From Lytechinus variegatus (Eukaryota): a DNA stretch of 64,000 nucleotides. The stretch spans positions 35,339,243 through 35,403,242 of the forward strand of contig NC_054743.1 of NCBI RefSeq assembly GCF_018143015.1, written 5' to 3'. The position numbers and the translations under genes were made by a program. This document shows, piece after piece, positions 693-45,810 of the stretch; position 1 is the stretch's first letter; every line of letters starts with the position of its first letter. The notes under the pieces are model-generated. The model saw only the letters and a list, made by a program, of their open reading frames with translations, did no database searches and had not been told where the DNA came from.

Positions 693-1160
693 GTGCTGAG
701 CAATTATTTGAGAAGCAACCGCTCTCCAGGAATCCCGCCCATCACAATCTCAACCTCCATCAGTTTGCAATCATCCGAGAAGCAACCTCAATCCAGGAAT
801 CCCGCCCATCACAATCTCAACCTTCATCAGTTTGCAATCATCCGAGAAGCAACCTCAATCCAGGAATCCCGCCCATCACAATCTCAACCTTCATTAGTGT
901 GCAATCATCGAGAAGCAACCTCAATCCAGGAATCCCGCCCATCACAATCTCAACCTTCATCAGTTTGCAATCATCCGAGAAGCAACCTCAATCCAGGAAT
1001 CCCGCCCATCACAATCTCAACCTTCATCAGTTTGCAATCATCCGAGAAGCAACCTCAATCCAGGAATCCCGCCCATCACAATCTCAACCTCCATCAGTTC
1101 GCAATCATCCGAGAAGCAACCTCAATCCAGGAATCTGTTCGTGCGATCTCCAGATGTTGA
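693..1160. repeat. minisatellite, about 60-bp unit x about 7.5 (gcaatcatccgagaagcaacctcaatccaggaatcccgcccatcacaatctcaaccttcatcagttt)
   Basis: Direct tandem copies with a 60-bp period visible in the sequence. The overlapping ORFs 693..1160 and 899..1213 are repeat artefacts. Confidence 0.9.
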
Positions 1161-1600
1161 ATGTAGTGGGTAAGCTGGTTGAGGTTGAGATGATCGGTGG
1201 GCTTGGTAGATGATAGTTTCTGGGCACAACACACGACCAGAGACACCATCAACACTCTCAGAAGTTTGCCACCAATCTTCCCTCCTATGAAACAAAGAAA
1301 TCAAGACACAGAGGTGTAAAGCAAAACTAAAAGAGGGCCTTTCTCATATTCATTACTTTTATTATCACATATGTAATTTCATGCTTCATTTATTGATTCA
1401 ACCATGTTTACAAACAGATAAAAAAGTTACAAAAATATTCAAAGAACAATACATCAGAAAATAATACAAAGTAAAAATTGTTAATGGGGAATAAGAGCTT
1501 GTTGGTGGGGCTACCTACATGTAACAAATATGAGTAGCAAAGACAAGTATTATAAACATGTATTCTCTCAATTATCTTATGTAATTGAATTTTGCCACAT

Positions 1601-2440: not shown

Positions 2441-2635
2441 CTTACCAAGTGAGTATATGCCTGCATTCTTGAGCAGGCCAAACAGTTTCACAAAGCTTAC
2501 ATGTTTACCAAGAGTAAAGAATAACTGCAGTTCCTGAAACATGACATGGCAGAAAACAATACAAGACTGGATGTTGATGATAATAATGATATGAAACATT
2601 TATATAACACTTAATACAGATGTTTCTAAGTGCTG

Positions 2636-3676: not shown

Positions 3677-3736
3677 CAGGCTCCCATTCATCACTGGAAC
3701 TAGCATCATCATCATCATCATCTGGATCGTCTACAC
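3677..3736 (-). CDS. small poly-Asp exon (CVDDPDDDDDDASSSDEWEP)
   Basis: Acceptor tttttttctttgtggcag| and donor CCT|gtaagt, 60 nt, phase 0 to 0. Confidence 0.35.
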
Positions 3737-4450
3737 ACTGCCACAAAGAAAAAAATCAAGACTTTCATTAATGCACATTATATAAGGCCCATAACTGGTG
3801 TGTTAATAACATGTACATGTATTTTGTTCTGCATAATTTGCCCACATGGAAGACTGTACATGTATTGCAAGATGCACTAAAATTCTCCAATGGCTTATGT
3901 ACAAAACTTGCGATGCAATATCTTGTATTTCAATGTAAACAATAAACAAAATAAAAATCCACTAATAGAAGCTGATACAAGTATAGAAATGTACATAGTG
4001 CTTACACTGAACAGATCCAGGACAAGCAAGGATTCCAGGGTGTCCTTGTCCGGTAACGACTCCACTATAACAGGAACCACGAAAGGTTCTAGGGTCATCA
4101 TGTAACCGTTCACGGCCTGCTTTAAAACGGAGAGCTCCCCCGTTGTCCATCCAGGGAAAGACTCTGGTATGTTTCCAGTACACAAGGCCCTCTGCCACAT
4201 CCCTAACTCATGCGGCCGGGTGTAGACGCGAGATGTCATTTCTTCAACTGCAAATGATAACAAAAGCGATTACCAAATTGACTATGTACATGCATCATAT
4301 ATTCTTTAAAGCTTTCAAAAGCTGTATCATTTTCACAATTGAAGCACGCAACTAAAAACACAACCATGAACTCGCCATGAAAGACAACACACAAAAACAC
4401 TATTGGGAAACTCCAACAGTTAGGAATTTTAAATGGTAAATAGTACTCTA

Positions 4451-4777: not shown

Positions 4778-4995
4778 TATTATTACCATGGCTTTAGCCC
4801 TGCAGCCTTTTATTGCACGGTAGCATTTCAAGGAACAAAATCCTGCCAGGTACCCATTTACCCCACCAAGGTCGAGTGCAGCACAATGTGGATAAATTTC
4901 TTGCAGAAATTACGCTTGGCTGGGATTCGAACCAATGACCATCTGTTTCAAAGTCAGAAGAGTCAGAATCCACTAGGCCACAACGCGCCACAGCT
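4778..4995 (-). mobile_element. SINE family 1 copy (inverted, adjacent to the previous copy)
   Basis: Reverse complement of the head ggcctagtggattctgactcttctgactttgaaacagatggtcattggttcgaatcccagcc plus the core. Confidence 0.8.
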
Positions 4996-5107: not shown

Positions 5108-5342
5108 CTGTTACTTCCTCTCCATCTGAAGGAGACCTTGAACGTGACCTTGCACGTGACCTTGAGCGTGACCTTGAGAGTGACATTCTCAAACTTCTTC
5201 CCACTGTCCTACCTGTCCAGAACTGACGCATCTTACCCCGCCCCTCCTCCTCGGTCTCCTCCTCGGTCCCCTCCTCCTCGTCAAATAAGTCATACCCCAT
5301 ATCATCATCCGATTCCTCTGAACTTCCTCCTTCTAATATCAA
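5108..5342 (-). CDS. acidic plus RS-rich exon (LILEGGSSEESDDDMGYDLFDEEEGTEEETEEEGRGKMRQFWTGRTVGRSLRMSLSRSRSRSRARSRSRSPSDGEEVT)
   Basis: Strong acceptor ttcctcctttttcag| and donor ACAG|gtgaat, 235 nt, phase 0 to 1. It contains an Arg-Ser dipeptide run. Confidence 0.5.
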
Positions 5343-5469: not shown

Positions 5470-5665
5470 CCCAATTGATCATGGGCCCGAAAGCCGTCGT
5501 GCAGCGCCATATCGACGAGGCTCTATCCCTTTTACTCATTAAATGCCAAACAGGGTAGCAGCAACTCCCATCTTTTAACGTCTTTTGGTCTGACGCGGCC
5601 AGGGTTTGAACTCCCCACCTCCCGGTTGTGAGACGGACGCTCTACCAACTAAGCCAACATACCTT
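5470..5665 (-). mobile_element. SINE family 2 copy (tRNA-like head ggctcagttggtagagcgtccgtctcacaaccgg..gttcaaaccc)
   Basis: About 200 bp; near-identical copies at 35255-35450(-) and 51150-51355(+). Confidence 0.8.
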
Positions 5666-5985
5666 TTGGATGCTATCGCTAATGGTGTTGGATCATGTCT
5701 CTTTCTTTCACTGAAATGTCGTACAATTGCATAAATAAGCATACTTATTGTACAACACCTCAGCAGTTGGAGAAAACATAAATGATAATCAACTTTTTTC
5801 TTATGTTAAACTATGAATATGATGAAACAATTTAATATTGAAAGCAAAAAAACACAAAATCCCTCAAGGGCGAATCATAATTATCTGTCAGTAAAGCAGT
5901 TTTTTTTAGCAAGTAGACAATACACACATTGGACCTGCATTTATTTACTCAGCGCAAATGAATATCGTCACATAACTTCCTAATG

Positions 5986-6361
5986 CCCCTTTCATAAACC
6001 CATCCTCCAATTATCCGCCTAAGAATAATGCGGATAATTCAATAAAAATTGCGTTCACAAACTCTGAAAATAATCCGCACTTTTTTTTACGAGCGCCCAA
6101 CCTGAAAAAGGCGATTAATTGTCATAGCAACTGCACACGCCCCCTCCGATGGGGTTGCGTTGGAAAAGGGTGACCTTGTGACCACACCATGGCAATTATC
6201 CGCATTACTTTGGAAATGCGTTCATAAAGTCAAAATCTGGTCCCGATGCTGCTATTATGCGGATAATAGCAGCATCGAAATAATGCGGATAACTCTGGTC
6301 CTCCTCCGATTTTACAACCAAATTATGCGGCTATTATCCGCATAATTGGGTTTATGAAAGG
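5986..6361. mobile_element. MITE with TIR ccccttt(c)ataaaccca; internal palindromic motif attatccgcataat x4
   Basis: The terminal inverted repeat 5986-6003 matches the reverse complement at 6343-6361. Confidence 0.6.
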
Positions 6362-6995
6362 GGTATAAGACACACAACAGTACATTTTGGAAGGTATGTG
6401 TGCAATGGTATGAAAGGTCATATTGATGCATGAATGTTTGACGGATTAGAATGAAAATATGCTTTTTCTCATGAAAACTTGAGGTAATTTGAGACAGCTT
6501 TGGAAAATAAACTGTATACATGTGTGGTTCCTCCCTTAAAGCCAGTCAAGATCATATTGCATTCTGGGAAAGGATACTGGGTGGATATGAGGTAATTCAT
6601 ATCTTGGGATGGTAATGCTTTAAAGTAAAAGTAGCGATTACAATCTCAAAATGAATTCGAACAGAATCCAATAAAATATGTGCCAAATATCTCTGGAAGA
6701 GAATACGCAATTGCTGAGAAATGAGCAAAATAAGCACGGAATTCCATCAAATTTCAGGCATTTTTCAAAGCACTATTACTACACTGACCCACATATGCTT
6801 TTCTGTGCAAGTTATCAGAATTATCGATTTCGAGCTAAGATTTCATGATTTTACATATACAAGTTTTTATTAATGTAATGGATGTAGATGTATGATAATA
6901 TTTTGACAATTAACCTTGATTTAAAAGACTTTCTCGTGAAATAATTGTTTGCTGCAACTACTGTGTTTAACCTTTAGATACATGTGATTGCTTAC

Positions 6996-7085
6996 CAAAT
7001 CTGATTGGACATTCTTCCTCTTCGCAGGAGCCAAATAAACCTCTTCTTTGTGTCTTTCTTCCTCAAGAGCATCAAAACATTCTTC
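6996..7085 (-). CDS. cassette exon A (EECFDALEEERHKEEVYLAPAKRKNVQSDL)
   Basis: Acceptor ctattgtcgtag| and donor TTG|gtaagc, 90 nt, phase 0 to 0. The intron flank (acatgtgattgcttaccaa..atctgattggaca) is shared with the A-prime copy. Confidence 0.4.
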
Positions 7086-7269
7086 CTACGACAATAGCGA
7101 ATGAAAAAATAAAAAAGAGACAATAATATATCGTTGAATGTGATAAATACCATGCACTCTCACGATGTCTGAATATGAGGGTGCATAATAGGACCGAGTT
7201 TGAAGTTGATTTATGAAAGGGTTCTTAGAGGTCGAGTTCACTCCAGAAAATGTTGATTTGAATAAATAG

Positions 7270-7860
7270 AGAAAAATCAAACTAGATTAATGATGAAAAA
7301 TTCATCAAAAACGGTTGTAAAATGAGAAAGTTATGACATTTTAAACTTTCCCTTATTTATCACAAAATAATGATAGGTACAACTCAGTGACATGCAAATG
7401 ATGATGTCCCTCACTCACTATTTATTTGTTTTTAACTTAAACAATATTTCATTTTTGTAAACAGATTTGACAATAAGGTCCACCTTGACTGAACCATACA
7501 GTATTAAACAATGCTAATATCACATGTTCAGGGAGGAATTAATCATTGTTTCATTTGACAATGAGGAGAAAATTAGAACATTTCATATTTCATATAATAA
7601 AATACAAAAGAAATAGTGAGTGGGTGACATCATCAGTCTTCTCATTTGAATACCGACAAGGATGTGCATATAACTGTTTTGTGAAATTACATGTAAGCAA
7701 AACTTTAAAATGTCATAACTTCCTTGTTTTACATCTGATTTTGATGAAATTTTCAGTGTTAAGCTTGTTGGATTTTTCTCTTTATATTCAAATCAACTTT
7801 CTGTTGGGGTGGACTTGTCCTTTAAGTTATCAAGAGAATGAAAAGGGGACGAACGGACAG
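7270..7860. mobile_element. foldback/MITE-like element family E (internal inverted repeats agtgagtgggtgacatcatcag; tcatcaaaatcagatgtaaaacaaggaagttatgacatttt)
   Basis: Paralogous copies at 14290-14830 and 50040-50640 with the same internal hairpin architecture. Confidence 0.6.
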
Positions 7861-8126
7861 ACGCACCGAAAACATAATGCTGCACGTTGTACAATCCAAC
7901 TACAGCAGGATTTTGAACAAATAGCATTTATGCATTGAAAAAGAAAGTATCAAGAGGTGAAATTATTCTAATTGAAGTTTGGCATAATGCTAGTCATACT
8001 AAAATTGCTTTGCTGCAGGCCTTGCGGTCGAACTTCCCTAAATCGGCTTTAAAGGGGAATGAAACCTTTGGAACAAGTAGGCTTGTGTCGAAACAGAAAA
8101 ATCAAAGAATAAGAACAAAGAAAGTT

Positions 8127-8566
8127 TGAGAAAAATCGGACAAATAATGAGAAAGTTATGAGCATTTGAATATTGCAATCTGTAATGCTATGGAGATCCT
8201 CCTATTGGCAACACGACAAGGATGTGTGATGTCACACATGAACAACTTTCCCTTTGATGGACTATGAAATACCCTGAAAATGTGTCTTTTTGCTTTTTTG
8301 TATGGTGATACAAACTCTTTATCCATGATGTATTCTTTAAAAATCTGTATTACATGCCCTCCTATAGAAAGAATACATGTTCTACTGATAGATGTAATAA
8401 AAGAGGCAATTTAAGTGAAATATATACTAAAGTAATGGGGAGAGTTGTTCAAGAGTGACATCACACATCTTTGTCGCATTGCCAATGTGAGGATCTCCAT
8501 AGCATTAGTGATCGCAATATTCAAATGCTCATAACTTTCTCATTATTTGTCCGATTTTTCTCAAAC
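8127..8566. mobile_element. foldback element with about 110-bp terminal inverted repeats
   Basis: 8127-8237 is the reverse complement of 8456-8566 (ttgagaaaaatcggacaaataatgagaaagttatgagcatttgaatattgc...). Confidence 0.75.
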
Positions 8567-8589
8567 TTTCGTTGATCTGTTTCTTTCAT

Positions 8590-9290
8590 TTTTCTGTTTT
8601 CACACAAGCTATCTTGGTCCAATGGTTTCATTCTCCTTTAAATCGCAGCCGATCGGGACGTCATTACGATTTGAATTTGCTTTTATTCCTACAGGAAGCT
8701 TTTTATGACTGGAATTTGATTTTAGTATTCATACCACTCTTCGGAAACATTAAATGTTAACGATTTATGGGTTGGAATGATCATATCAAATGTTAAATTT
8801 CTTTGAAAATCGTATCGCAACTGATCGTGAAGGGTGTGCTTGTCTTTCAATAGAACACAATGAGACAAACAAATCTGAGACGCTGCAATAAACACTCATT
8901 TTGCAAAGTCTCATAATGGCTTCCCAAGCCCACAAGGGTAATGTAAATGTCAAACACCTTAAAAAGGGGGGGGGGGGAATCTGAGATCCATTTTATCTAA
9001 GATAAAATTAAAAAAATGTCATCTTTGTTAAATCAGTGAGATAAATACCCTAAAGTCTCTCCACATTGGTGTTCTGAGAACCATACAAGAAAGTACAATA
9101 AATGATAAAATACTTACTAAATCTCCGAACAGTACATCTAGTGCTTCTTCTTCTTTCTGCTTTTTGGCTTTGTCTCTATCGCGTCTCCTATCACCCTGAA
9201 ATGAAAAAAATGGAATCAAGAATGAGGGAGGTGCATTTTAGAGAAACTACAAATAACCATGAATCCATATTAGGGTGATTCAATACTACC
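8590..9290. repeat. segmental duplication copy 1 (about 0.7 kb, carries exon B and flanking intron); copy 2 at 11840-12690
   Basis: Long collinear similarity including gattttagtattcatacc...gttaacatt...atcaaatg(c/t)taaatttct(c/t)tgaaaatcg and the exon B region. Confidence 0.7.
9118..9195 (-). CDS. cassette exon B (GDRRRDRDKAKKQKEEEALDVLFGDL)
   Basis: Acceptor tttttttcatttcag| and donor TTA|gtaagt, 78 nt, phase 0 to 0. Confidence 0.4.
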
Positions 9291-9655
9291 GTTTTCATAC
9301 TGAAGGTGAAGTGGAATTACTCCGGAATAACTCCGGATTGAGTTTATACGCTTGTACTGCGGACCGACTTTAAACCCCCTTTCATATTGGCAAGCACCGC
9401 AGCAGTGTATCCGCAGTCGTTGCAATGGTTTCCAAGCGAGTTCGCGCCATACGTGTGGCGAGATCACAGCGATAAGCGCATACCGCATTTCCGGTGCGGA
9501 GTAACTCCGTTTGTAACCCTCTTCTGGAAGTGGGTTGAGTACTCCGCTTTGAATCCGGATCGAACTAATCTCAGAATTTTCATATTGCCCTCCAAAGTGG
9601 AGCAACTCCTTCTGGACTCCGGACTTACTCCACTTCAGCTCTCACTATGAAAGGG
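9283..9655. mobile_element. MITE with TIR ttttcatactgaaggtgaagtgga
   Basis: 9286-9310 is the reverse complement of 9625-9650. It sits at the edge of duplication copy 1 and is absent from copy 2. Confidence 0.6.
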
Positions 9656-11446
9656 GTAAACGTGTCCTACAGGAAATTTCAACAAAAATATCCGGTCTCT
9701 TAGCTGAATGCCTGAGCAATAAAATTTTCTGTTTTTTTCAATGAGAAAGTTATGGTGGGTAGTTATGTGAAAAACTGATAACCAGAGATGCCAACCTCTT
9801 GACACAAAAAATCAGACTGAATATCCTCAAAAATCATATTTTTTAGTGAAAAATCAGATTTTCACGAAAACTCAACATGACAAGTGCAAGCCTTGAATTA
9901 AGCAAGGCTTTAAAAAAAATTGCCCCCTGCTCGCGGGCTTTTTACAGGAACCGGGGGCAATTTTCTGGAACCAGGGGCAATTTTCTGGAACCAGGGGCAA
10001 TTAAAAAAAAGAATATAACTGTGAACCACACTCCAAATTTGTTTATAGTAAGTGCAACTCCTGCAATTTTTTAATAAGTAGTAAGTAATAGGCTTTTTAA
10101 ACAACTAAGAAATCAGAGTTAAATGTTTAAGCGTGTTTTGACACCCTCACTCCACATCCCCTTTACATGGGCTGATTTACTTTTCATCTTTAATGAACCA
10201 CAAACAATGAACCCCCCCAAAAAAAAAAATCTAAATCAATGAATAAAATAAACATAAAAAAGAGAGAATTCAGATCAAATAATAACTTAGAAAAAAAAAT
10301 TTTAAGTTTTTTTTTTCATGGTTAGAATCACGGTTGTGGGTGAGTGTTTGTGTATGATTGTGACTGTGAGGCGCACTTTGATTGCATATAAATTATGTTA
10401 AAGAAATGAAGAAATTAAATCAATATCTAACTCAGTCTGTTCAAATTCCAGCACATAGCCACAGGCTACATGTGATTTTTTAAATGTACATGTATCGTAG
10501 GTTCATGTACCTTAAGTTTTTCACAAGTTTTTTGAAAACGCAGATATTCACAGAAAATGCCTTTCATTCAGGGGAGAGTCTAAATTCTGTGAAAATGTAT
10601 TCATTAATAACTTGAATATTCATCACAATGAAGGAATCATCAAGTTTTTTTGACAGTTATCAAAAATTAACATGATATCTAAACTCTATCTGAAACAGAA
10701 AATCACCATCACTTAGGCCATTACTGATAGAATTCTCACCCAGAGCTCTGGCAGAGAACGTGAGCTCAAACTGGCTAGCTAACAGCATACAAGTTCCACA
10801 CTCAAGTGCACGGCGTCCTCCTATTTTTTTTTTAGATGGAGCCTTGTTTATAATTTATTGTCTGATATTTACCCCTCACCAAGAAAGAAATTAAAAAGCT
10901 ATAATTCACAACTATTGATTTTGGATTAATAAGGCTCCGTTTTGACAAGCAAAGTCGGCGATGTGAGGATAAAAGACTCGAACATCCTATGTGCTGAGAA
11001 CGGGGATTTATCTCCTGTGCAATTCAAATTACTATTTCACAGAATTGTGATATCCCGACTGGAAATGTGTGCATTAGAAATTACACATGGTGAAGTAGGG
11101 GAAAAACTACTGGAAGCATGCGCGTACATGTATTACAGGAAAAAAAAAAGGGGGACGTAGCTCACTTTTTATGGTACTGAAAAAAAGACGCACTTGGCAA
11201 TTTGAAACTGTGCTTATACATAGCACACATATGGGACAAAAACAGGACAATCAAAGAAAGTCGGGAAATCGTATTTTTGATGGCCAAAATCGTACTGTCG
11301 TATTTTACTTGTTTTATCGTACTAAATACGATAAAATCGTACTGGTTGGCATCTCTGGATAACCAACAAAAAATGTTTGATTATGGGGGATTTAAAGGTG
11401 AAAAGGTGTGTTTCATAAGGGATTTTAAACACATGTGATTGCTTAC

Positions 11447-11569
11447 CAACAGATCTGATTGGACACTGTCTTTCTTTCCTTCAATAGCAGGAGCCATACT
11501 ACACAAAAAATCTATCGACCCAAACTCATCATCTTCTTCTTCAAGTACTATTTCTCCACACATCGTAGT
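11447..11569 (-). CDS. cassette exon A-prime (TTMCGEIVLEEEDDEFGSIDFLCSMAPAIEGKKDSVQSDLL)
   Basis: Acceptor tctttcgtag| and donor TTG|gtaagc, 123 nt, phase 0 to 0. Paralogue of 6996-7085. It resembles the human PARP4 acidic stretch SILCFLEVKEEDEIVCIQ. Confidence 0.45.
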
Positions 11570-12099
11570 CTACGAAAGAGAATGAAATACACAGGAAAAT
11601 ATATAAGGTCACTGAATGTAATGACTAACATGCCCTCTCGTGACGACCGTACATGTATGTGAGGATGCTTACTTGGACCAAGTTTGAAATTGATCCATAA
11701 GCGCTCAGAGACATGATTTGTGATAAGCGCTATACAAATAATGTTCATCATCATTATCATTATTATAAAATGGTTATCACGCAAATGACAAAAGTTTGGG
11801 TAGTCCTTTTCAGGACCGACAATTGCCTACAAAAGATGATGTACCATGAAACATACTACACTATTTTTCTTGACTTCGCCATGGAAACCTTCAGAAATTA
11901 CTTTCCTACAGGAAGCCATAAAATAGACAGAAATTTTGATTTTAGTATTCATACCAGAAACATTGATCGTTAACATTTTACGGGTTGGCATGACTATATC
12001 AAATGCTAAATTTCTCTGAAAATCGGATTGTGTGCACTGGGCTTTGGGTAGAACACATTGACAATGCAATAAACTTTCATTTTGCAAATAATGGCTACC

Positions 12100-12395
12100 C
12101 TTTCCTCCAGGGGAAGTGTGAGGGTTGAACAGGGGTGGTATGAGGAGACCTGGGATGGTAACTCCGGTAGGAACTCCGCAGAACAGCTTTATGCCAAGCT
12201 GGTATAAAACCAATTATCTTCATTAACACTTTATGTCTAGGTTAATCAGTCACAGTGGCTGAGCGTATATACAACAAAAAATACTCTCGGGTCTTTTTAT
12301 CAAAGAGGAGACAATGGCAGAGGAGGGATTTGAACTCACAACCTTACGGCTAAGAGTCAAGTGTTCTAACAACTATACCACAGACCCATTTTATC
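12100..12395 (-). mobile_element. SINE-like insertion with tRNA-like head (gggtctgtggtatagttgttagaacac...gagttcaaatccctcctctgcc), present only in duplication copy 2
   Basis: An insertion of about 290 bp relative to copy 1. It is tRNA-like but does not fold as a clean tRNA. Confidence 0.45.
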
Positions 12396-12511
12396 TCAGA
12401 TGAAATAAAAATCTCCTGTCAAATCAGTGAGATAAAATGCACCTAAAATCTCTCAGAATTAGTCGTCTGAGAACCATGCAAGAAAGTACAATAATAAATG
12501 ATAATACTTAC

Positions 12512-12592
12512 AAAATCTCCAAACTCTACATCTAATACTTCCTCTTCTTCTTTTTGCTCTTTCTCCCTGTCTCTATCACGTCCCTTATCACC
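12512..12592 (-). CDS. cassette exon B-prime (GDKGRDRDREKEQKEEEEVLDVEFGDF)
   Basis: Acceptor tttttttcatttcag| and donor TTT|gtaagt, 81 nt, phase 0 to 0. Paralogue of 9118-9195, lying inside a duplicated segment of about 0.7 kb. Confidence 0.4.
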
Positions 12593-13442
12593 CTGAAATG
12601 AAAAAAAGGGAAACAAGAATTAAGAAGGTGCATTTCAAAGAAATTACCAACCATAAATCCATATTAGGGCAATTCAATACGTGTCATACAGGACAGTTCA
12701 ACAACAATTTCTCGTCTCTTACATGAAGCTGAATGCTTGAGCATTAAAATGTTGATTTTTGTCAATGATAAAGTTATAGTGGGTAGTCATGAGAACTGAT
12801 TATCAACAAAAAATATTTGATTATGGGTAAAAAGGTAAAAATGTTGTGTGTCATACATGACTAAAAAATATCCCATACGGCACGAAACATTTTCATCTTT
12901 AAGTCACCCATGGACAACATATTTTTGTTGGATGTCATTTTTTTACATGACTCCCAGTAGTATTTTACTGTGGCCACAAAACAAATTGATGTTCCTTGTT
13001 TGTTTGGACAGCAGGTTGAAACATGATGCGAAACTGGCTGACATTTCTTTCATGGACTCATCCATCAACTGAAACGCTTGTTCCATGCAGTTTCATGACT
13101 TTTTTCTTTAAAGCTACATGTAAGTATCTATAGTGGCAGCAAACAATGAGTTCATGATAAAGTCATTGTTAAAATCAATGCTTCTTGTCACCATGTCATT
13201 GTAGACCCCATCTTCTTCTAAAGAGTTACGACTGATCCAATCAATCATAACTATGGAAAGCCAGCAGCATTAACATTTATTTTGTTCAAAATATTTTCTA
13301 GATACCCGTACAGTATGTTGTACATTCATGCACTCATACTTTTCTTGAAAATTCTGTGTACTTCTCTTTCTTTAGAGAGGACATCATGCAAATTTCCCGG
13401 AGAAAAAAATTATGACACTTAAGGATTTCCATATAAGATGAT

Positions 13443-13750
13443 CAGGGGCCTGTCTTACAAAGAGTTACGATTGATCCAATCAATCACAACTGTATGGAAA
13501 TCCACCCATACCATAATCTCTTCTACAAGAAGTTTGCACAATCTCCTTAGTAAACAAAGAGTCACACTGAATCTTCAAGAGAAGGATGAATGTATGAATA
13601 TACATATCTCAAAAGCATATTTAACAAATATGTATTTAAGATGTTGATGTTGCTGGCCACCCATAGTTGTAATTGATCGGATGAATCATGACTATTTGTA
13701 AGACGGGGCCAAGATCAATCATAACTCTTTGTAAAATGGGCCCCATAACC
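13443..13750. mobile_element. MITE family A (TIR cagggcc(c/t)gtcttacaaagagtt(a/g)cgattgatc)
   Basis: Clear TIRs. Other copies lie at 27541-27825, 31016-31310 and 42336-42597, with a partial copy at 13190-13280. Confidence 0.75.
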
Positions 13751-14878
13751 ATTTCATTTGCATGAACTGAACAATTTGAGATCATGAAATCTAAGCTGAA
13801 TGGTGACCAAACAGAAGCTCAGCAACACAACAAAGATGAGCAGCCTCTCTCTATGTTTGTGATATGATCTTTTTTTTTAAATGTAGTTTTCTCACAAAAT
13901 TTCAAACAATTCTATTTGTGGGATTAATATATCATGAGACTCATCATTCTGTAAGGAAAATATTCCTATTTGTCATGTTCCATTTAAAAATATGATTTAT
14001 GAAATTTACATTTAATGATTTTAGGAGGGAGCTGTTCGCATATGACATCACAAATCAAAAATCTTTAAGGTTTCATAACTCTTATTCTTGGATGGATTTT
14101 CATCAAACCTTCACCATTATTTTCTCTAATATTTACTCCGTTATCAAAACCAACTTATTGATGGAGTGAACTTCCCCTTTATATATGATACCTTTAGTGT
14201 TTTCTCTTCATTGATGAAAGTTCACAATAGGTTAACATACATGTAGAGCACACATTTATGCAGTGCCACACGAAAATCTCATTGATTAAAGATCAAGTCC
14301 ATCCCAGAAAAATGTTGATTTTAATTAACAAAGAAAAATCAAACAAATGCAATGTTTTGCTTGATTTTCACAAAACAGTTATATGCATAACTCGGTGATA
14401 TGCAAATGACAGAGATAACGATGTCCCTCAATCACTATTTCTTCTTTTTTACTGTTTGAATTGTACTACATTTTAATTTTACAGATTTTACAATAATGAC
14501 CAACTTGACTGAACCAAAAAATGTTTAAACAATGGTAATTCCACATGTTCAGGGACGAATAAAACTTTGTTTCACATGACAATGAGGAGAAAACTAAAAA
14601 ATTTCATATTTCTCATGACATACAAATGAAATAGTGAGTGGGTGATGTCATCAGTCTCCTCCTTTGCATACCAACCAGGATGTGCTATAACTATTTATGA
14701 AATTAAGCAAAACTTTAAAAACTAGTATATTTTACATCTGATTTTGATGAAAGTTTCCGTGTTATGCTTGTTGGATTTTCCTCTTTATTGGAATCAACTC
14801 TTTTTTGTTGGTATGGACTTGCCCTTTAAGAAGAGATTATTTCAATACTGTAGACAAAGGCATGGTATATCAACAAAC

Positions 14879-15013
14879 CTTTTCACGGTTCAGTTCCATC
14901 CCAGTTTCCATCAAGCAATAGACATCATCTTGTTCGTATAAAACTCCTTTCTTTTGCTCCTCTTCTCGTTTGTGTAAAACTGCTTTCTTCTTCTTCTTCT
15001 TTGCCTTCTCCTC
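14879..15013 (-). CDS. candidate K/E-rich exon (EEKAKKKKKKAVLHKREEEQKKGVLYEQDDVYCLMETGMELNREK)
   Basis: Acceptor ttttgtttaag| and donor AAG|gtttgt, 135 nt, phase 0 to 0. Same strand, downstream of the giant exon. Confidence 0.4.
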
Positions 15014-15585: not shown

Positions 15586-16075
15586 ATGCAGGCTTACAAA
15601 AAAAGAGGGGGGAAGGGAGATTATCAGCATCACCACCATCATCATCATCATCACCATCATCTACATCATCATCACCATCACAATCATCACCATCACCATT
15701 ATCATCATGATCATCACCATCATCATTATCAGCATCACCATCACCATCACCACCACCATCATTATCATCATTATCATCATCATTATCAGCATCACCATCA
15801 CCACCACCATCATTATCATCAGCATCACCATCATCACCATCACCACCACCATCATTATCATCATCATCACCATCACCATTATCATCATGATCATCACCAT
15901 CATCATTATCAGCATCACCATCATCATCACCATCATCATCATCATCACCATCACCATTATCATCACCATCATCATTATCAGCATCACCATCATCACCATC
16001 ACCACCACCATCATTAACATCATCATCGCCATCATCATAACCATCATCATTATCATCATCACCACCATTACGAAA
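15586..16075. repeat. (CAY)n microsatellite of about 490 bp (catcac/catcat), plus a short copy at 16860-16920 and a (GAAR)n block at 16550-16605
   Basis: Pure trinucleotide periodicity. The poly-His (+) and poly-M/V (-) ORFs here are artefacts. Confidence 0.9.
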
Positions 16076-18959
16076 ATCTCCCGTTTGATTCTCGACCGCA
16101 CTTCGGACTGCAAACTGCGGTCGTATACCCCATTTTTCGTTTGCAAAATCTCAACAACATTTCCAACCCCGATAAACCCATCTTGGCCAGGTAATCCCCT
16201 TGTCTCAATTTCACATCCACGGGCCAAATAAACGAGCGTTGAGCCAAGGACGAAATGATAAACAACAGCTGTGCTATTACGTAAGACTTGTCTGCCTGTA
16301 GAATGATCTTCGGAATGAAATTATTGTATTCGATATTAATCACGTTTTCAAAGGCATATTACATTCAGACATCCAATACTAGTCCATTTTCAATTTCGAA
16401 CGAAGAAAATCGACCTCGAAATAAGGAAAGTAAGCGAATAAAAATTACGGTATGCTTAGCATGCAAGGACCGCGATGCATCCCATATAGTTTCTGTCCGT
16501 CCAGCAAGAAAATATGGGATGCATGCCGTTCACTCGCGCAATGATACAGTCTTAACGAAAGAAAGGAAGGAAGGAAGGAAGAGAGAGAGAAAGAAAGAAA
16601 GAAAGAAAAAAGTTTCTATCAACGCGTGTATACATGGAACTCCATGCACTCACCAGAACTACAAACATTGCAATCCATCGTGTGTGGCCCCCTGCTGTGA
16701 CCGTTGATGCTGGGGTGTGTTATCTTCGGACCGAGGTCAAGAAACAGGTGTTTCTATACTTAAATTTCATGCTTGAGGGCAATAGGGTTTGTAGTACTGG
16801 GAGAAGAGAATTGATAAGGGAAACTGGGGTATACTGCTCTTCAAAGCAAGATTTTCGTCATGATCATCATCACCACCATCATCCTCCTCAACCTCACCAT
16901 CATCACCACCATCACAACATGGATGTCATAACTGAATCCACTGATACAACAAATTCGATGACTGTGAGCATTACGCTCCAATTATCGCAAATGAAAATAA
17001 TTACCGGCATCATTCTCGCTGTAGACAATATGGCTGCTCTCCCCTTCTCACGGTGCACCTCTCTCTCTTCCGATGCTTCATGCTTCTAAACATTCCGAAA
17101 AAAGGAGATCAAATAAAATGAAGGAAAACATGAAGATACATAACAAAAATAAATTACCAAACTAAGAAAAATACTTTAAAAGAGGGAATAAATGAATACA
17201 TAAAGAGCCCTGTTTGCAAATTTCCCACTATCACAATAATCAACGCAAAATCATGGCATGGCTGATAGTGAAATCATTATATGAAGAAGAAAAAGATGGG
17301 GGAAAAATGGTAACATAGAAGCATTTATTCTCAGCAATCACTCCATACAATCTGCACCAATACCACTAATACCATTTCTTATAGTCACTCAGACTTTCAC
17401 CCTGGAAGAAAGGCATTTTATTTGGCCGTGATTTTACATGACAACTGTTAAAAGCTACTGAAATGCTTCCTTCTGATCGGTGGACAAAGACAACGATGGC
17501 AGTGAAAAACAAAACATTCACAAGAGACTTCAAGAAACACTCTCTGTTCTCATTTCTCTATCAGTCACATCATCATCTCACTTTACCATGAAATTTGCTC
17601 TGGCGACAATTGCTCGGCTGTAAAGTCCACCCACAAATGGAATGACCAACTTTAAGCTTGGATTTAACACTACACCCTATCCTAAACCTAACCTTGAACC
17701 TAACATAAAACCCTTTTTCAATCCTCACCCTAATCCTATATCTTAGACAAAATAAAACTCGGAGGAACTGTCACCAGAGCATGTCACCCATTCCACACCA
17801 AAAACATGCAGATGTACCCCTTTAATACAACTAAAAAACAATTTCTGAGTTTCATAATACAATGTAAGACCAAAGATAGGCCAAATGGTGTAAATTTCAA
17901 ATAAAAACAAAACAAAACATGCAATGACAATATACATGTATTCCATCAAATTTGCATGCACTGAGCCTAAATAATGTAGATACAGTGTATATATGTATAT
18001 CAAATATAATGCAGATGAAAACTCAACTAATTTTATTCGTTTATCATTATTCACTTTATTTCATTTTTAAAATCGTTTATTCATTTAGTGGGGGGGTTTC
18101 CATTTTATCTATGGAAGACCAGCGATGTTTGCAAAGTTCTTTTTATCAATACTCCGCTATTACTTTAAAACCCCAAATATTACACTGTACATATAGTTAC
18201 AGAAATGTTGATATTGATATTGACCTGGATTAATCTTATCCCCACTCACTACGTGACTATCAATAAGTCATAATTTGCATTTGGTTTTCATTTGTTTTTT
18301 TTTGTACATGGTCTGCTAAGACAGCGAGTGTCGAGGCCGCATGCCTATGAGGGACAGCGCCATACATGACGCTTTTTTTAAGGACATCACCAGCACTTTG
18401 GCTGGCATTTGACCAGTCTCAGCTTGCGTCTTGTCTCTTGTGGTCCCTCAGAGGCACCTACTAGTGTTTCTAGATCTATGTGATATGTTGTTTATTGTAT
18501 TATATTTTAAGATTTTTTTTCTTCTGGATAGTGAATTTTATTGACCTGCATTTTCTCATTAAAGGGAAGTGTCTAGGGCGTATATTGCATTCCTTCAATG
18601 TGCAGATTTGCAAATAAAGTGATACATGACAACAATTTGACATTTGCATGCTTTCTTGAAGACATCATTCATGAGGACTGGCTCTCAAGATTTCCATACC
18701 AATGATTGTTTTTTTGTCCCGTTTTTTGTACACTGTAACTTTTTTGAGACAATGTTGAAAGACAGGAATATTCATCATAAATCATAAAAACTCATACATG
18801 TACTTAGTTTTCATACATAAAAATCATACATGTACCTAGTTTTCACAGATTAAATAACACTAATGGATTATTTATGTAGCTTTTACGTGAAAATGTTGCA
18901 AGAAAGAATAGAGCCCTAGTGCATATGATAATCATATTCCCACATCACACCCGTCTTAA

Positions 18960-19507: not shown

Positions 19508-22500
19508 TTTAGTTAAAACTAATTCATTTGAATAAATAGTATCTCCGTCATGTCTCTGGGTAGTCTTCACAGAACGTCTGGTGCTCTGAAACCTCTCTTC
19601 TTCATAGCTTAGCAAAGAATCTCGAAGTTGTGTCTCGGCGATGGAGTGACTGGCAAATCCTAAGCCCTGTGATGCTACCGGGGCATTGGCATGTGTCCAG
19701 TTGTCTGCCCTTGACCGATCGCTGAAACTAAATCCTTGAGACACTCGCGGAACATCACTATGTGTCCGAGCCCTTCCTTCGGACTGACCACCGAAACTGA
19801 ATCCATTTGATACCCTTACAGCACTTTGAGCTTGATCATTTGCTTCATGCTGACTGCTGGAAACAGATCCTTGAGATTCATCAAGACTGGACACCCCTGA
19901 CACTCCCGAGACAGCACTATGCATCCGAGCTATGGCACAAGTTGAACTTCCAAAAAATAACCCTATTGATGGTCTATCAAATCTAGGCATTTGTGACTGA
20001 CTACCAAAACTGAACCCTTGCGACTGGACATTAAAAGGGGACCCTTGTGGCTGGCTACCAAAACCAATTCCTTTGGATGGACCACCAAAAAGTGGCACTT
20101 GTGACTGGCCACTGAAACCAGTTCCTTGTGATGGGCTACTAAAAGGGGACTCTTGTGGCTGATTATCAAACCCAGACTTTTGTAACTGACCACCAAAAAG
20201 TGACCCTTGTGACTGGCCACTAAAAGGGGACCCTTGTAACTGGCTACCAAAACCAATTCCTTTTGATGGACCACCAAAAAGTGGCACTTGTGACTGGCCA
20301 CTGAAACCAGTTCCTTGTGACGGGCTACTAAAAGGGGACTCTTGGGGCTGATTATCAAACCCAGACTTTTGTAACTGACCACCAAAAAGTGACCCTTGTG
20401 TCTGACCACCAAAAAGGGACCCTTGTGACTGGTTACCAAAAAGTGACCCTTGTGATTGGCTACTAAAAGGGGACCCTTGTGATTGATCCCTGAAACCAGT
20501 TCCTTGTGACTGACCACCAAAACTGAACCTATTAGACTGACCATCAAATCCAGACTTTTGTGACTGAGCACCAAAAAGTGACCCGTGTGACTGACCACCT
20601 AAATCTGTTCCTTGTGACTGATCACCGAAACTAAATTCGTTTGGCGTACCAACAGAGCTAGAAGCTGATTTTTGTGACAGAAAACAAAAAGGTGACCCTT
20701 GTGACTGACCACCAAAAATTTGAGCAGTACGTTGTTGAGCTGATTCAGATTTCTTGAAGGACATCCTGTCAGATTGTGAAGAAGATCCAAATAGACCCAC
20801 TGTGGGCTTAGACACTCTTCCCGACATCTGGAAAGGCAAGCTCGTGGGTGGCAGTTCTGTACTTCCATGATTGTTTGTAGACTGCTCTTGTGATGCAGGC
20901 CCATTGACATCAGGAATTTCAAGCTCGCTTCCTTGTCTTGGGCAGAGGGCATTGTTGGCTTGATGATTTGGATGTAGCAATGACATATCTGATGATTCCA
21001 TTTCCTGTGCAGATTTGCTTGGGGATTCCGGGTATGTTTTGGATACTTCCTCTGGTTGCTCTAATCTCTCAGGAGCATTCTGATCCTGTCCACACCAATT
21101 ATCGGGTTGAAAAGGCGTCTCAGTAACTCTCGAATGGTGTGCATGTGTTCCAGTTCCAAGTTTCAGGCTCTGAGGTTTTCCAGTGGAATCACTCACAGAT
21201 TTGTCTAGCATACCTTGGAGATGTTGACGTCCATTTGGATACAATTCTTGACTGAAATCTTGAGCTGTGGTATCCATGGCAACATTAAACCTTTGGAATT
21301 GAGGCCTTTGTTGTAGACTTCCACTATCTCTGGACTCACGGTCAAGCTTCTTTGTCTCACGTTTCTTGCTTTGAGTAGTATCAAGATCCCCACCTTTAAA
21401 GACCTTTTCTCTGCCAATTTCATTTTTACTATCAAGAAAAATGACACCTCTTTCACATTCACTTCTCTCTTCCGCTAAATCATCATCAACATCCACTCCA
21501 AACCCACAGAATTCCACATCTATAGATGGTGCTAACATTGTACTACCTTGATGAATATGATCTTTTTCATTGTTACTAACTTTTTGCAGTTGGGAGGCAG
21601 GTTCAACACCCGAACCCAATGAACAAGGAAACACTTGTACTGACTGCATGGCCTGTTGAACAAGTGAAGGATGAGAAGAATCAAAATCTCGAGAAACTTG
21701 AGCATATGCAGGAGAAGCTGGAGAATATGCAGGAGAGGTTGGAGAATATGCTAAATATATTGGAGAAGTTGGTGGAGAAGTTGGTGAATATGCAGAAGGG
21801 GAGCGCTGCTGCATGGCTTTTCCAAATGTTTGTTTTTGTGTAGCAAGTTTCTGTGACAGAACTGAGCTCCCATGCATTAACGAGTCAGCCCTAATATCTA
21901 GTAGAGACAGATTACTTTCATATGTACTGGAAGCTTTATCAGATATTCTCTCCAAACCTCCAGCAAGGTCCTGGTATTCCGAAGTTCCTCTTGGTTTGGG
22001 ACTACCTTTCCCACCCTTGTTTAAACCAATGGATTTTACAAGATCTGTATGTCCAGAGTTCCGTGGAGGTGGTGCTGGCATTGATTGAGGAAGAGCTCTA
22101 GCAGCTCGGCGTCGAGTTGGAGGTGGAGCACCAATGGCTTCACTCAGAGGTGGAGGTGGCGGATGAGGAGCACTAGCAGCTTTAAGTGACGGAGGAGGAA
22201 GAACAGCACCATACACAGGAGCACCAAACATGGCACCATCATGTGAATGTGGAGCCGAAGCAGCAGGAAGACCACTACCAGTAGGTGGTGGAGGAGCAGG
22301 TGCAGCAAAACGGCCACGAGAAGGAGGCGGAAGAGGAGGAGCATGAAAGCCACTTAGGGGAGGAGGAGGTGGAGGAGCAGCGAAGACACCAGGAGGCGGT
22401 GGAGGAGGATCACAAACACCACCAGTAAGAGGAGCAGCAGCAGGACGGCCATCAGAAGGAGTCAGAGCATAAAACCCACTTTGAGGAGGTGGAGGAGCAG

Positions 22501-22801
22501 CAAAAACACCAGGAGGTGGTGGAGGTGGAGCACCTGGAGCAAAAATGCCATCAGGAGGAGGTGGGGGAACACCAGCACCCCTACCTCCACCACGACCACC
22601 AATAGCAGATGGAGGACGAGCACCACCAATAGAACAATATCTTCTTAAAGGCATTCCTAGAACTCCTTTTTTTCCTGCCCATGCGGATGATATCTGTCGG
22701 GGATGTCCTTTTCTCATTATGGATGCTTTATAAAGAACCTCATCAGCAGAGAGAGCTTTTGCTTCTAACATTGTCTCCATGATTGCACCATGTTGTTGTT
22801 G
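19508..22801 (-). CDS. PARP4: giant 3294-nt low-complexity coding exon (1098 codons): proline-rich blocks, CTD-like YSPTSPA heptads and about 20 FG-type SQGxxFGGQ repeats; probably the PARP4 C-terminal disordered region
   Basis: Uninterrupted ORF (the 1176-aa ORF 19382..22912). Its 5' end is a strong acceptor tttgttctttgtacag|CAA, in phase 0, which matches exon 24321-24376. Its 3' end is a consensus donor AAA|gtaagt at 19508. Human PARP4 also has a long Pro-rich C-terminal region after the vWA and ITIH-like part. Assignment to the same gene rests on strand, order and phase only. Confidence 0.55.
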
Positions 22802-35254: not shown

Positions 35255-35450
35255 TGCTTCGCCCAATTGATCGTGGGCCCGGCAGCGCCAGATCGATGCG
35301 GCTCTATCCCTTTAATCGTTGAACGTCAAACAGGGTAGCAGCAACTCCCATCTTTTAACGTCTTTGGGTCTGACGTGGCCGGGGTTTGAACCCCTAACCC
35401 CCTGGTTGTGAGACGGACGCTCTACCAACTGAGCCAACACACCTTGAGGC
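35255..35450 (-). mobile_element. SINE family 2 copy
   Basis: Near-identical to 5470-5665. Confidence 0.8.
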
Positions 35451-39359: not shown

Positions 39360-41300
39360 TTTGTCATGCTTCTTTCACAAGATGACTTGTGTAAAACATC
39401 ATGTAAAAGGCTGTGTAAAATGTAGATAAAATATTGTGTAAAAAAGTGGGTAAACATTGTGTAAAATAAGGAGTTGCCAATTTAAAGATTGAGTAATGAC
39501 TTGTGTAAAACAATATGTAAACCAGTGAGTAAAACACTGAATCACATATTGTGTACAACAGTGAGTAGAACATTGTGTACAGCAGTGTGTAAAATATTGG
39601 GTAAATACTGTGTAAAACTTTGTGTAAAACAATGAATAAAGCACTGTATAACAGTTGATAAATCACTGAGAAAAACATTGTGTAAACAGTGTGTAAAACA
39701 GTGTAAACGTAGTGATTAAAATTTGAATAAAACTGTGTGGTAAGAAGTGCGTAAAACATTACAGTTACGGTGTAAAATGAGGAATTGCCAATTTGAAGAT
39801 TGACTTTCTGGGGCTTCTTCATCCATCAGATAGGCTCCGTGCCTCTTACTGATTGCTCCCTTGCATTCCTCATGAGCTTGTTCTTCCTCCTTGTACGATG
39901 TGCTTGAAGTTGAAGACGACTTGTGTAAAATTTGTTAATTATTGTGTGAAAAATTTAATCAAAACAGTGGGTAAAACTTTCATGTGCAGAACAGTATAGG
40001 ATAAAAACGTTGTATAAAACGTCGTGCACAGCATTGGGTAAAATGAGGAATTGCCAAATTGAAGTTTGAGTAATACCTTGTGTAAAACAGTGTATAAATT
40101 GTGCATAAATCATCATATAAAAAGAGTGAGCAAAACTGTATGCAAAACATAGTGTAAAGCTGTGTGCAAATTATGTGAAACAGTGTGTGAAAATTAGGAA
40201 TTGCCAATTTAAAGACTGAGTAATGACTTGGGTAAAACAATGTATAAAACTGTGCATAAAGCATCATGTAAAAAATAGTGAGTATAACTGTGTGCAAAAC
40301 ATTGCATGAAACAGTGTGTAAAACATTGTGTAAAACATTTATGTGACAAAATGAGGAGATGCCAATTTGAAGATCGTTTCGGACTCACTGGTGCTTCTTC
40401 ATCCATGAGATAGGCTCCGTGTCCCTTACTGATGGCTTCCTTGTATTCCTTATGAGCCTGTTCTATGTGCTTTTATCCAATTTAGCCTCAAAACATTATT
40501 GTGTGTTATGAATTGTCAAATGAGTTGCCAATTTGAAGTTTGAGTAACGACTTGTGTACAATGTGTAAATCATTGTGCAAAAAAATGATAAAACAGTGGG
40601 TAAACCTTGCGTAAATCAGTGTAGGATAAAACTAGAATGTAAAACACAGCACTGAGTAAAATGAGGAATTGCCAATTTGAAGATTGATTAATGACTTGTG
40701 TAAAACTGTGTATATAACTGTGCATAAAGCATAATGTCAAAATAGTAAGTATAACTGTGTGCAAAACATTGCCTGAAACGGTGGGTAAAAGATTGAGTTA
40801 AACATGTGACACAATGAGATGCCAATTTGAAGATCGACTGACTGGTGCTTCATCATCCATCAGATAGGCTCTGTGCCTCTTACTGATTGCTCCCTTGTAT
40901 TCCTTATGAGCCTGTTCTTCCTCCTTATCTCTTATCTCCTATGAATGCCTCAAAACCTTGTTGTGTGTTATGAGTTGTCAAATGAATAGCCAAGTTGAAG
41001 TTTGAGTAACGACTTGTGTACAATGTGTAAATCATTGTGCAAAAAAATTATAAAACAGTGGGTAAAACCCTGTGTAAATCAGTGTAGGATAAAAACTAGA
41101 ATGTAAAACACAGCATTGAGTAAAATGAGGAATTGCCAATTTGAAGATTGAGTAATGACTTGTGTAAAACTGTGTATAAAAGTATATATAAAGCATCATG
41201 TCAAAAAACAGCAAGTAAAACTGTGTGCAAAACATTGTGAGAAAAATTGTGTAAAACAGTGTGACACAATGAGGAGATGCCAATTTGAAGATCGACTTAC
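39360..41300. repeat. higher-order tandem array (about 460-bp unit of three sub-repeats of about 150 bp, gccaatttgaag plus tgtgtaaaac-like motifs); one sub-repeat per unit is a copy of the 3' end of the VIT exon plus donor
   Basis: The exon-end copy cttcttcatccat(g/c)agatagg...ccttatgagcctgttc recurs at 39806, 40388, 40843 and, in the real exon, 41297. Confidence 0.8.
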
Positions 41301-41519
41301 TGGTGCTTCTTCATCCATGAGATATGCTCCATGCCCCTTACTGATTGCTTCCTTGTATTCCTTATGAGCCTGTTCTTTCTCCTTGACCGTACCCACTATG
41401 TGCTTGTCTCCTATGAATGCCTCGAACCCACACACGGCGGCACTGTCTTCCAGGGGGAATACATACTTGGCTTCGATGGACTCCCGGTTCACGTTGTCAT
41501 ACTCCTGGAAGATGACGAC
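41301..41519 (-). CDS. PARP4: VIT-domain exon (VVIFQEYDNVNRESIEAKYVFPLEDSAAVCGFEAFIGDKHIVGTVKEKEQAHKEYKEAISKGHGAYLMDEEAP)
   Basis: Acceptor tacctctag| and donor CCA|gtaagt, 219 nt, phase 0 to 0. It nearly matches human PARP4 AKYIFPLDDKAAVCGFEAFINGKHIVGEIKEKEEAQQEYLEAVTQGHGAYLM. Confidence 0.85.
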
Positions 41520-45185: not shown

Positions 45186-45258
45186 ACTAGAATGTCCTAC
45201 ATGTACTTGACAGATTATATTCCCCTTTACAATTATTATTATTATTATTAATACTTAC

Positions 45259-45445
45259 ACTAAAATCGGAAGCTATCTGTCCAGCTACGGCTCCTAAACC
45301 CTTGACACTATCAAAGCCACTTGGAGGTTGGTCGAGGTCTGGGTGATATTTAGTGACTTCATGGCATCTGCCTAAGGACACCTCACATATCATCAGAAAC
45401 CGACTATTACTCAGTTTGCTTTGGACAGAGTAACATGCGCTGGTG
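45259..45445 (-). CDS. PARP4: PARP catalytic-domain exon (STSACYSVQSKLSNSRFLMICEVSLGRCHEVTKYHPDLDQPPSGFDSVKGLGAVAGQIASDFS)
   Basis: Acceptor ctcttctttttaacag| and donor AGT|gtaagt, phase 2 to 0. It matches PARP1 LLLGEVALGNMYEL...PKGKHSVKGLGKTTPDPS and human PARP4 LLLICDVALGKCMDLHEKDFSL..PPGYDSVHGVS. Confidence 0.8.
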
Positions 45446-45449
45446 CTGT

Positions 45450-45810
45450 TAAAAAGAAGAGATACATGTATGTGGTCGGTTAGATTAGAGATTTATTAAC
45501 ATCTGGTTTGAAATTGGTTAAGATCTGGCTGATATTCAAGGACCTAATGACATCTGCCCAAGGATTCCTCACATATCATCAGAAACCAACTATTACTCAA
45601 ATTGCTTTGGACAGAGTAACATACACTGATGCTAAAACAAGAGAGATATAAGATTAGTTAAGATCAGGTAAGAGGTTGGTTTTGATCTTGGTTATATTCC
45701 ATGACCTTATGATATCTGCCTAAAGAAGCCTCACATATCATCAGAAAACAACCATTACTCAAGGTGTTCTGGACAGAGCAACATGCATTGGTGCTAAATT
45801 AAGAGATACA
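45450..45810. repeat. two degenerate tandem copies (about 180 bp each) of the 5' half of catalytic exon 45259-45445 plus its upstream intron
   Basis: The copies read SNLSNSWFLMICEESLGRCH... with stop codons. Confidence 0.75.

Follow-up and report, generated by a model that had tools for sequence, protein, structure and literature searches.

Which transcript carries a duplicated pair of short, charged exons that lies beyond the annotated end of a sea urchin PARP4 gene? The exons stand on the minus strand of a 64,000-nucleotide (nt) stretch of Lytechinus variegatus contig NC_054743.1, which was analysed as a whole, is called the window here and supplies all coordinates below unless another contig is named. 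In transcriptional order they are B', A', B and A, and together we call them the cassette. The window holds the PARP4 gene on the same strand, with BRCT, catalytic, VIT and vWA exons that match PARP4 fragments, and downstream of the cassette it holds further exons that, on our alignments, are homologous to MINT, the MVP-interaction domain of human PARP4. Our answer, given a probability of about 0.5, is a long transcript of the PARP4 locus that includes MINT. The four exons are as follows.

Exon B', 12512-12592, minus strand: 81 nt, phase 0-0, peptide GDKGRDRDREKEQKEEEEVLDVEFGDF with an exact FGDF core; acceptor score 11.7.
Exon A', 11447-11569, minus strand: 123 nt, phase 0-0, peptide TTMCGEIVLEEEDDEFGSIDFLCSMAPAIEGKKDSVQSDLL.
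Exon B, 9118-9195, minus strand: 78 nt, phase 0-0, peptide GDRRRDRDKAKKQKEEEALDVLFGDL; paralogue of B'.
Exon A, 6996-7085, minus strand: 90 nt, phase 0-0, peptide EECFDALEEERHKEEVYLAPAKRKNVQSDL; paralogue of A'.

Each exon is preceded by a pyrimidine tract and AG (..ttcag or ..cgtag), is followed by GTAAGT or GTAAGC, and has an open frame; the coordinates, strand, lengths, phases, acceptors, donors and peptides given for all four in an earlier note on this DNA proved exact. A strict exon scan (YAG acceptor, at least 70% pyrimidines, GTAAG[TC] donor, open frame, 60-300 nt, length divisible by 3) returned nine candidates on the minus strand, corresponding to eight distinct exons, and none on the plus strand; resampling the window 300 times under a first-order Markov model gave a chance expectation of 0.26 candidates per 64-kb strand. 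Among the eight, three are homology-supported PARP4 exons and four belong to the cassette. Such a strand-specific excess of perfect candidates argues against the view that the cassette consists of unused pseudo-exons, left behind by a recent segmental duplication or open by chance, whose intact look would reflect only the short time elapsed; we regard that view as improbable.

Joined together, B', A', B and A give about 124 residues of low complexity, 49% of them charged, and every combination of the exons keeps the frame. The peptides have basic blocks followed by acidic ones and end in the acidic-hydrophobic motifs LDVEFGDF, LDVLFGDL, DDEFGSIDF and EECFDALEEE. Pfam has no family for the chain, and in PDB, where full-length human PARP4 is included, the chain matched SRSF1 alone and not PARP4. 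A word-indexed protein search also found no match, and its silence is uninformative because the index seems to be without long proteins: a PARP4 VIT/vWA query gave only fragments of <500 residues and not the L. pictus protein described below.

The second step is the origin of the cassette, for which the following features are needed.

Duplication unit 1, 11418-12855, minus strand: B' and A' with their introns, about 1.44 kb, defined by an edge repeat and collinear blocks.
Duplication unit 2, 6967-11417, minus strand: B and A, enlarged by later insertions, defined by collinear blocks.
Terminal-inverted-repeat element in unit 2, 9779-11361: about 1.58 kb, with 18-nt terminal inverted repeats at 9779-9796 and 11344-11361 (TAACCAGAGATGCCAACC / GGTTGGCATCTCTGGATA).
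Inverted-repeat element in the cassette intron of unit 2, 8048-8642: 205-nt arms.
Dispersed repeat of about 77% identity: 7224-7826 (cassette intron of unit 2), 14356-14830 and 50004-50606.

A tandemly duplicated two-exon module with duplicated intron flanks had been proposed, and both parts of the proposal are borne out. Intron flanks match between 8984-9286 and 12382-12680 (80%), 8686-8815 and 11903-12028 (78%), and 6973-7033 and 11424-11496 (78%), and the units become collinear after removal of the later insertions, to which alone unit 2 owes its greater length. Moreover, 12798-12855, just upstream of B', is repeated with 80% identity at 11358-11417, just downstream of A', and this edge repeat is, by its position and sequence, the junction expected of a head-to-tail duplication of about 1.44 kb. 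As judged by these matches, B'-A'-B-A arose from an ancestral B-then-A pair through a tandem duplication of about 1.4 kb, and the terminal-inverted-repeat element was inserted after it. The concern that the modules might belong to a repeat family carrying pseudo-exons did not hold, as a self-BLAST of 6000-13500 against the window found the two units only; unlike the cassette exons and their flanks, neighbouring transposon-like repeats have two to four copies in the window. No copy of the exon-bearing sequence was found in the contigs L001-L003, which are introduced below.

How the copies have diverged bears on whether they are used. B and B' share 69% of residues and 81% of nucleotides with one 3-nt indel, and their ratio of nonsynonymous to synonymous substitution rates (dN/dS) is 0.33, an excess of synonymous change. 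A and A' can be aligned in the 3' half and donor region and not in the 5' half, and are about half identical across the alignable C-terminal stretch of 17 residues; their dN/dS is 0.64 (0.87 in the 3' half). Exon identity, at 81%, is no higher than that of the intron flanks at 80-85%. The A/A' ratios and the equal identity of exons and flanks favour pseudo-exons, as do the presence of other exon-fragment duplicates in this gene and the lack of any homologue or annotation over the cassette. Against pseudo-exons, exonic indels in the codon alignment are all multiples of 3 and flank indels are not, and in a neutral simulation at about 20% divergence AG, open frame and GT were jointly retained in all four exons in only 0.9-3.6% of cases, before indels are counted. 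In addition, the phases fit the conserved exon C downstream exactly, and the gene's further local exon duplicates are incomplete, a stop codon interrupting one of them. Those duplicates are listed here.

39719-41038, minus strand: the VIT-domain exon's 3' end (..KEKEQAHKEYKEAISKGHGAYLMDEEAP) and the beginning of its intron, present in three partial tandem copies within the downstream intron; the true VIT-domain exon is at 41301-41519.
45514-45654 and 45673-45795, minus strand: the 5' part of the PARP catalytic exon, copied twice and since decayed to 63-66% amino acid identity; the true exon is at 45253-45447, and the copy at 45514-45654 carries an in-frame stop.
53975-54101, minus strand: the 3' end of exon 54088-54246 (..GHLNDILSCPMDRVSRDQ) and its donor region, copied twice as short tandem segments.

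The earlier note also considered mutually exclusive use, with either B'-A' or B-A in each transcript, a possibility that cuts across all readings of the locus. Paralogous, adjacent modules of the same phase with similar intron flanks would suit it. The unequal lengths (81 against 78 nt, 123 against 90 nt) together with the in-frame outcome of all combinations argue against obligatory exclusivity, amino acid identity is only 35-69%, and there is no steric or frame constraint to enforce it. Mutual exclusivity is thus neither established nor favoured, and we think it unlikely.

To place the cassette in a transcript, the exons on either side of it were delineated.

Giant PARP4 exon, 19508-22800 (start coordinate approximate), minus strand: Pro-rich, then GQSQGSLFGG-type repeats; ends in ELVLTK followed by gtaagt, phase 0.
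Exon X1, 17005-17085, minus strand: KHEASEEREVHREKGRAAILSTARMMP; last coding exon in the L. pictus annotation of PARP4.
Candidate exon X2, 14879-15013, minus strand: 135 nt, phase 0-0, EEKAKKKKKKAVLHKREEEQKKGVLYEQDDVYCLMETGMELNREK; weak donor, no comparative support.
Exon C, 5108-5342, minus strand: 235 nt, phase 0 to 1; acidic with SDDDMGYDLFD, then RS-rich; joins the cassette frame to the MINT-like exons.
Exon E, 4006-4247, minus strand: 242 nt; opens the MINT-like domain (..MWQRAL..FPGWTTGELSVLKQ..) and is conserved across L001, L002 and L003.
Exon D, 3678-3737, minus strand: 60 nt, phase 0-0, CVDDPDDDDDDASSSDEWEP.
Exon F, 2446-2533, minus strand: 88 nt, ELQLFFTLGKHVSFVKLFGLLKNAGIYSL; best match to human FLKQKGIQS1614LGVK1618.
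Exon G with stop codon, 1094-1284, minus strand: ..LLRVLMVSLVV..HLEIARTDSWIEVASRMIAN and stop; AATAAA at 523.

Exons C, E, D, F and G were defined using four unannotated proteins, P0122-P0125, from a HMMER search of cluster representatives. P0122 is a 256-residue open reading frame of L003, a 3.6-kb mRNA-like Logan contig. In L001, an ENA contig, these exons recur at 74-82% nucleotide identity with introns that cannot be aligned, and L002 is a more distant copy; exons E-G are conserved in all three loci. X1-X2-B'-A'-B-A-C-E-D-F-G forms a single open frame of 467 codons. The C-like exon of L001 has only 91 nt, and the first half of exon C is lineage-specific. We had also tried exon C as a terminal exon ending at about 5034 and rejected it, as its donor at 5108 joins the conserved exon E in the correct phase. 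Pfam has no family for exons E and D or for P0122, exons C, E and D gave no match in the same word-indexed search, and a metagenome scan with profile A3 found no relatives.

At 710-1135 the final codons of exon G and its stop (..ARTDSWIEVASRMIAN and stop) are repeated into the 3' untranslated region (UTR) by a tandem array with a 67-nt unit, 6.4 copies and 96% matches. A similar array lies at 7901-8130 of L001, and such an array is therefore conserved or recurrent.

In vertebrate PARP4 the MINT domain is the C-terminus. The human domain spans residues 1562-1724, its MVP-contact residues are S1614, K1618, Q1682 and R1689, and mutation of S1614 or K1618 weakens MVP binding (PMC12280208). We read out human residues 1536-1724 with anchored queries (PDB 11jf_P, 9bw6), and the resulting numbering reproduces all four contact residues. 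Only because of this read-out did the homology become visible: unanchored phmmer and hmmsearch runs against PDB with exons E-G and profile A3 gave no PARP4 match. In a single BLASTP comparison, P0122 matched human MINT with E=4e-5, and in Smith-Waterman alignment it gave z=6.8, a score reached by none of 2000 shuffles; the window and L001 sequences gave p of about 0.01. A hidden Markov model of the urchin-type sequences scored human MINT at 12.8 bits and the best shuffle at 8.7 (0 of 5000 reached the score), and hhalign was weakly supportive (P=0.0046, probability 7.6%). The four-way alignment with human MINT is collinear over about 125 columns with 26-29% identity, and its best block pairs human FLKQKGIQSLGVKGRECLLDLIATMLVL with LLKNAGIYSLGGKIGGKLLRVLMVSLVV of the window. 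S1614 and K1618 are kept in the window, L001 and P0122 (IYSLGGK / IQSLGVK); around Q1682 and R1689, where the urchin protein is the shorter one, the alignment is poor. An AlphaFold2 (AF2) model of exons C-G from a five-sequence alignment was all-helical with a predicted local distance difference test (pLDDT) score of 45, and its Foldseek matches in PDB were meaningless. By these alignment scores, the product of exons E-G is homologous to MINT of human PARP4, over residues 1566-1724.

The earlier note had compared the cassette itself with a human PARP4 stretch, CFLEVKEEDEIVCIQ. The stretch exists, at residues 1551-1565 directly before MINT, and it has no significant similarity to the cassette; homology between the two was rejected on this ground and because the PDB search of the chain had given SRSF1 only. 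Residues 1536-1565 of human PARP4 (11jf_P) are themselves a 15-residue tandem repeat, CFLQIKCDTKDDSIL / CFLEVKEEDEIVCIQ.

Where PARP4 ends is the crucial step. The closest annotated orthologue, found by exhaustive HMMER search of cluster representatives, is XP_054753684.1, PARP4-like of Lytechinus pictus (2520 residues), the exons of which map from 60511 down to 16990 in the window, mostly at 90-100% identity. PARP4 as annotated in L. pictus stops at about 16.9 kb, 4.4 kb upstream of B', and since it ends at X1, the cassette is outside PARP4 as annotated there; nothing in XP_054753684.1 resembles the cassette. In the window, read-through of the X1 donor meets a stop about 31 codons on. Hence the suggestion that the cassette is the same PARP4 unit's C-terminal portion stands in part: the annotated orthologue ends upstream of it, and the cassette is in frame with MINT-homologous exons downstream. 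Pfam has no family for the giant exon or the mid exons.

Two repeats lie in this part of the gene. At 19975-20632 (minus strand) the giant exon contains about 24 degenerate 27-nt repeats, encoding FG-like GQSQGSLFGG-type units after the Pro-rich stretch, and these are also present in L. pictus. Between X1 and X2, at 15623-16068, an (ATCATC)n microsatellite can be read on the gene strand as 242 open codons rich in Asp and Gly; it is probably non-coding and sits in a candidate PARP4 3' UTR or intron.

In the transcript that we favour, all four cassette exons would be real and coding, the giant exon would be spliced, with or without X1 and X2, through the cassette into the MINT-like exons C-E-D-F-G, and the X1-terminated form of L. 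pictus would be a shorter alternative or an incomplete model. The cassette would serve as a flexible, disordered spacer or tether between the enzyme and the vault-docking domain. Because all cassette exons are phase 0-0, duplication or skipping alters only the length of the tether and the number of its motifs. Support for a single unit comes from the arrangement of PARP4, the cassette and the MINT-like exons, which are adjacent on the same strand with a frame that is continuous from the giant exon to the MINT-like stop, and the exact fit of the cassette phases to the conserved exon C supports real exons. As MINT-homologous exons follow the cassette in frame, its position is that of the linker before MINT in a PARP4-type locus. 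Moreover, the acceptor of B' is very strong, and at least one upstream exon is therefore needed. No stand-alone annotated MINT-only protein was found among the 1.84 billion cluster representatives searched.

Several observations weigh against this assignment, including the A/A' ratios and the equal identity of exons and flanks given above. XP_054753684.1 ends with ...ELVLTK, KHEASEEREV...ARMIP and IILFIAIIGA before its stop, which are the giant exon, X1 and the read-through of the X1 donor, respectively. L. pictus has Ile where GTA in the window supplies the GT of the X1 donor, and because it has no X1 donor, splicing from X1 to X2 cannot be conserved and a long isoform there must skip X1. No longer isoform was present in the 90% cluster of XP_054753684.1. 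A Met-Gly stands at the start of the C-like exon in P0122 (MGGVSS) and in L001 (MGSSS), which fits an independent MINT-only protein. Finally, no search detected a homologue of the cassette, exons this short being below the detection limit of the large search.

These observations raise the possibility of a separate MINT-only gene with its own promoter between the PARP4 stop at about 16.9 kb and B', in which case PARP4 would end at X1 without MINT and the cassette, perhaps with X2, would be a lineage-specific N-terminal extension. The end of the L. pictus model, the non-conserved X1 donor and the shared Met-Gly start, which opens the P0122 frame of an mRNA-like contig, would all be explained by it. 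X2 could be either a linker exon or a first coding exon, as it has ATGs in usable context, and sea urchin vaults carry unexplained proteins of 14-55 kDa (PMC550661). The putative start codon is less persuasive on closer comparison: in place of the start Met of P0122 the window has E and L002 has D, the equivalent ATG in L001 has an out-of-frame ATG 7 nt upstream, and the Logan contig is cut 11 nt before the P0122 ATG with the frame still open. Given the missing ATG in the window and the upstream ATG in L001, upstream coding exons are to be expected. The strong acceptor of B' and the need for an exon before it, the frame that runs back into PARP4 and the place of vertebrate MINT as part of PARP4 also speak against a separate gene, and exact look-ups of 10 candidate stand-alone isoforms found none. 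L001 extends only 431 nt upstream of its C-like exon; the 10 kb upstream in L002 contain no PARP4 and no cassette-like exons, only an open reading frame like that of a long interspersed nuclear element. On balance we consider a separate gene a serious possibility, although a somewhat unlikely one.

Translation could also begin later, with the cassette exons real yet confined to the 5' UTR and the start at an ATG inside exon C (MGYDLFDEEE...). An in-frame ATG-GGG is present in exon C, and the lineage-specific first half of that exon, as seen from the 91-nt exon in L001, agrees with such a start. That four UTR exons should all have lengths divisible by 3, stay open in exon C's frame and keep frame-preserving indels is hardly to be expected, and the excess of synonymous change between B and B' is not that of untranslated sequence. 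We consider this very unlikely.

Returning to the long transcript, a more elaborate version would have the PARP4 locus yield two product classes by alternative 3' processing: a MINT-less enzyme ending at X1, and a form docked in the vault whose acidic tether varies in length with the number of phase-0 cassette exons included, its FGDF-type motifs recruiting G3BP or some other partner. Docking of PARP4 to the vault would in that case predate vertebrates and its tether would have been recently expanded by exon-pair duplication. This version is speculative, and we give it little credence.

The motifs themselves are as follows. A motif scan found the FGDF core in B'; B has FGDL and A' has FGSI, neither of which conforms. 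The B'-A' junction reads FGDF-TTMCG, without the usual two downstream acidic residues, and a hypothetical B'-A junction would read FGDF-EECFD. In exon A, ECFDALE is FFAT-like. SDDDMGYDLFD in exon C (5285-5320, minus strand) matches the tail of the ribosomal P-stalk at 9 of 11 positions and is present in neither L001 nor P0122.

Elsewhere in the window, fragments of tRNA-like short interspersed nuclear elements lie on the minus strand at about 12310-12385, 4900-4990, 5600-5680 and 35330-35420, and ARAGORN called no intact tRNA in it.

The unannotated MINT-like domain downstream of sea urchin PARP4 is a more useful result than the cassette, and it bears on whether vault docking of PARP4 is a vertebrate invention. 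A structural study has suggested that only in 'higher order organisms' did PARP4 come to reside in the vault (PMC12280208), and vaults are abundant in sea urchins (PMC550661). If the long transcript is real, docking of PARP4 to the vault would be older than vertebrates and sea urchins would offer a system for testing it. In stopping before exons C-G, the L. pictus RefSeq model appears either to represent a short alternative isoform or to reflect a gap in the annotation.

Compared with human PARP4, the urchin locus has the same BRCT, PARP catalytic, VIT and vWA domains and long Pro-rich disordered region, and in both a short acidic stretch is followed by the MVP-interaction domain, helical in human, or its MINT-like homologue (PDB 9bw6, 9bw7, 11jf; PMC12280208). 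The urchin MINT-like domain differs in having about 60 extra residues after the first helices, an acidic insert and an earlier end. The human linker from about residue 1536 onward is a short internal repeat, to which the sequence of the cassette has no detectable similarity. Enzyme and MINT form one polypeptide in human, whereas in the urchin their linkage is what the long transcript, at even odds, would supply.

The short motifs recall other systems. FGDF binds the NTF2-like domain of G3BP in USP10, alphavirus nsP3 and herpes simplex virus (HSV) ICP8, with a core of FGxF in which x is D, E or S and both Phe and Gly are essential (PMC4450067). VEFGDF of B' resembles it in its acidic, probably disordered context, and the motif occurs twice after the duplication, as in nsP3; however, FGDL in B is without the essential second Phe, and a four-residue match may be due to chance. 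The C-terminal peptide of the ribosomal P-stalk is SD[D/E]DMGFGLFD (PMC3280276, PMC2632931), from which SDDDMGYDLFD differs in being internal rather than C-terminal and outside the four cassette exons. Finally, the cassette shares with known tandem exon duplications and mutually exclusive clusters its adjacent paralogous exons, homologous intron flanks, symmetric phase and location in a predicted disordered region. It differs from them in that the unit is an exon pair, the copies differ in length and nothing enforces exclusivity. The cassette is a clean but ordinary example of the growth of a disordered linker by tandem duplication of symmetric exons.

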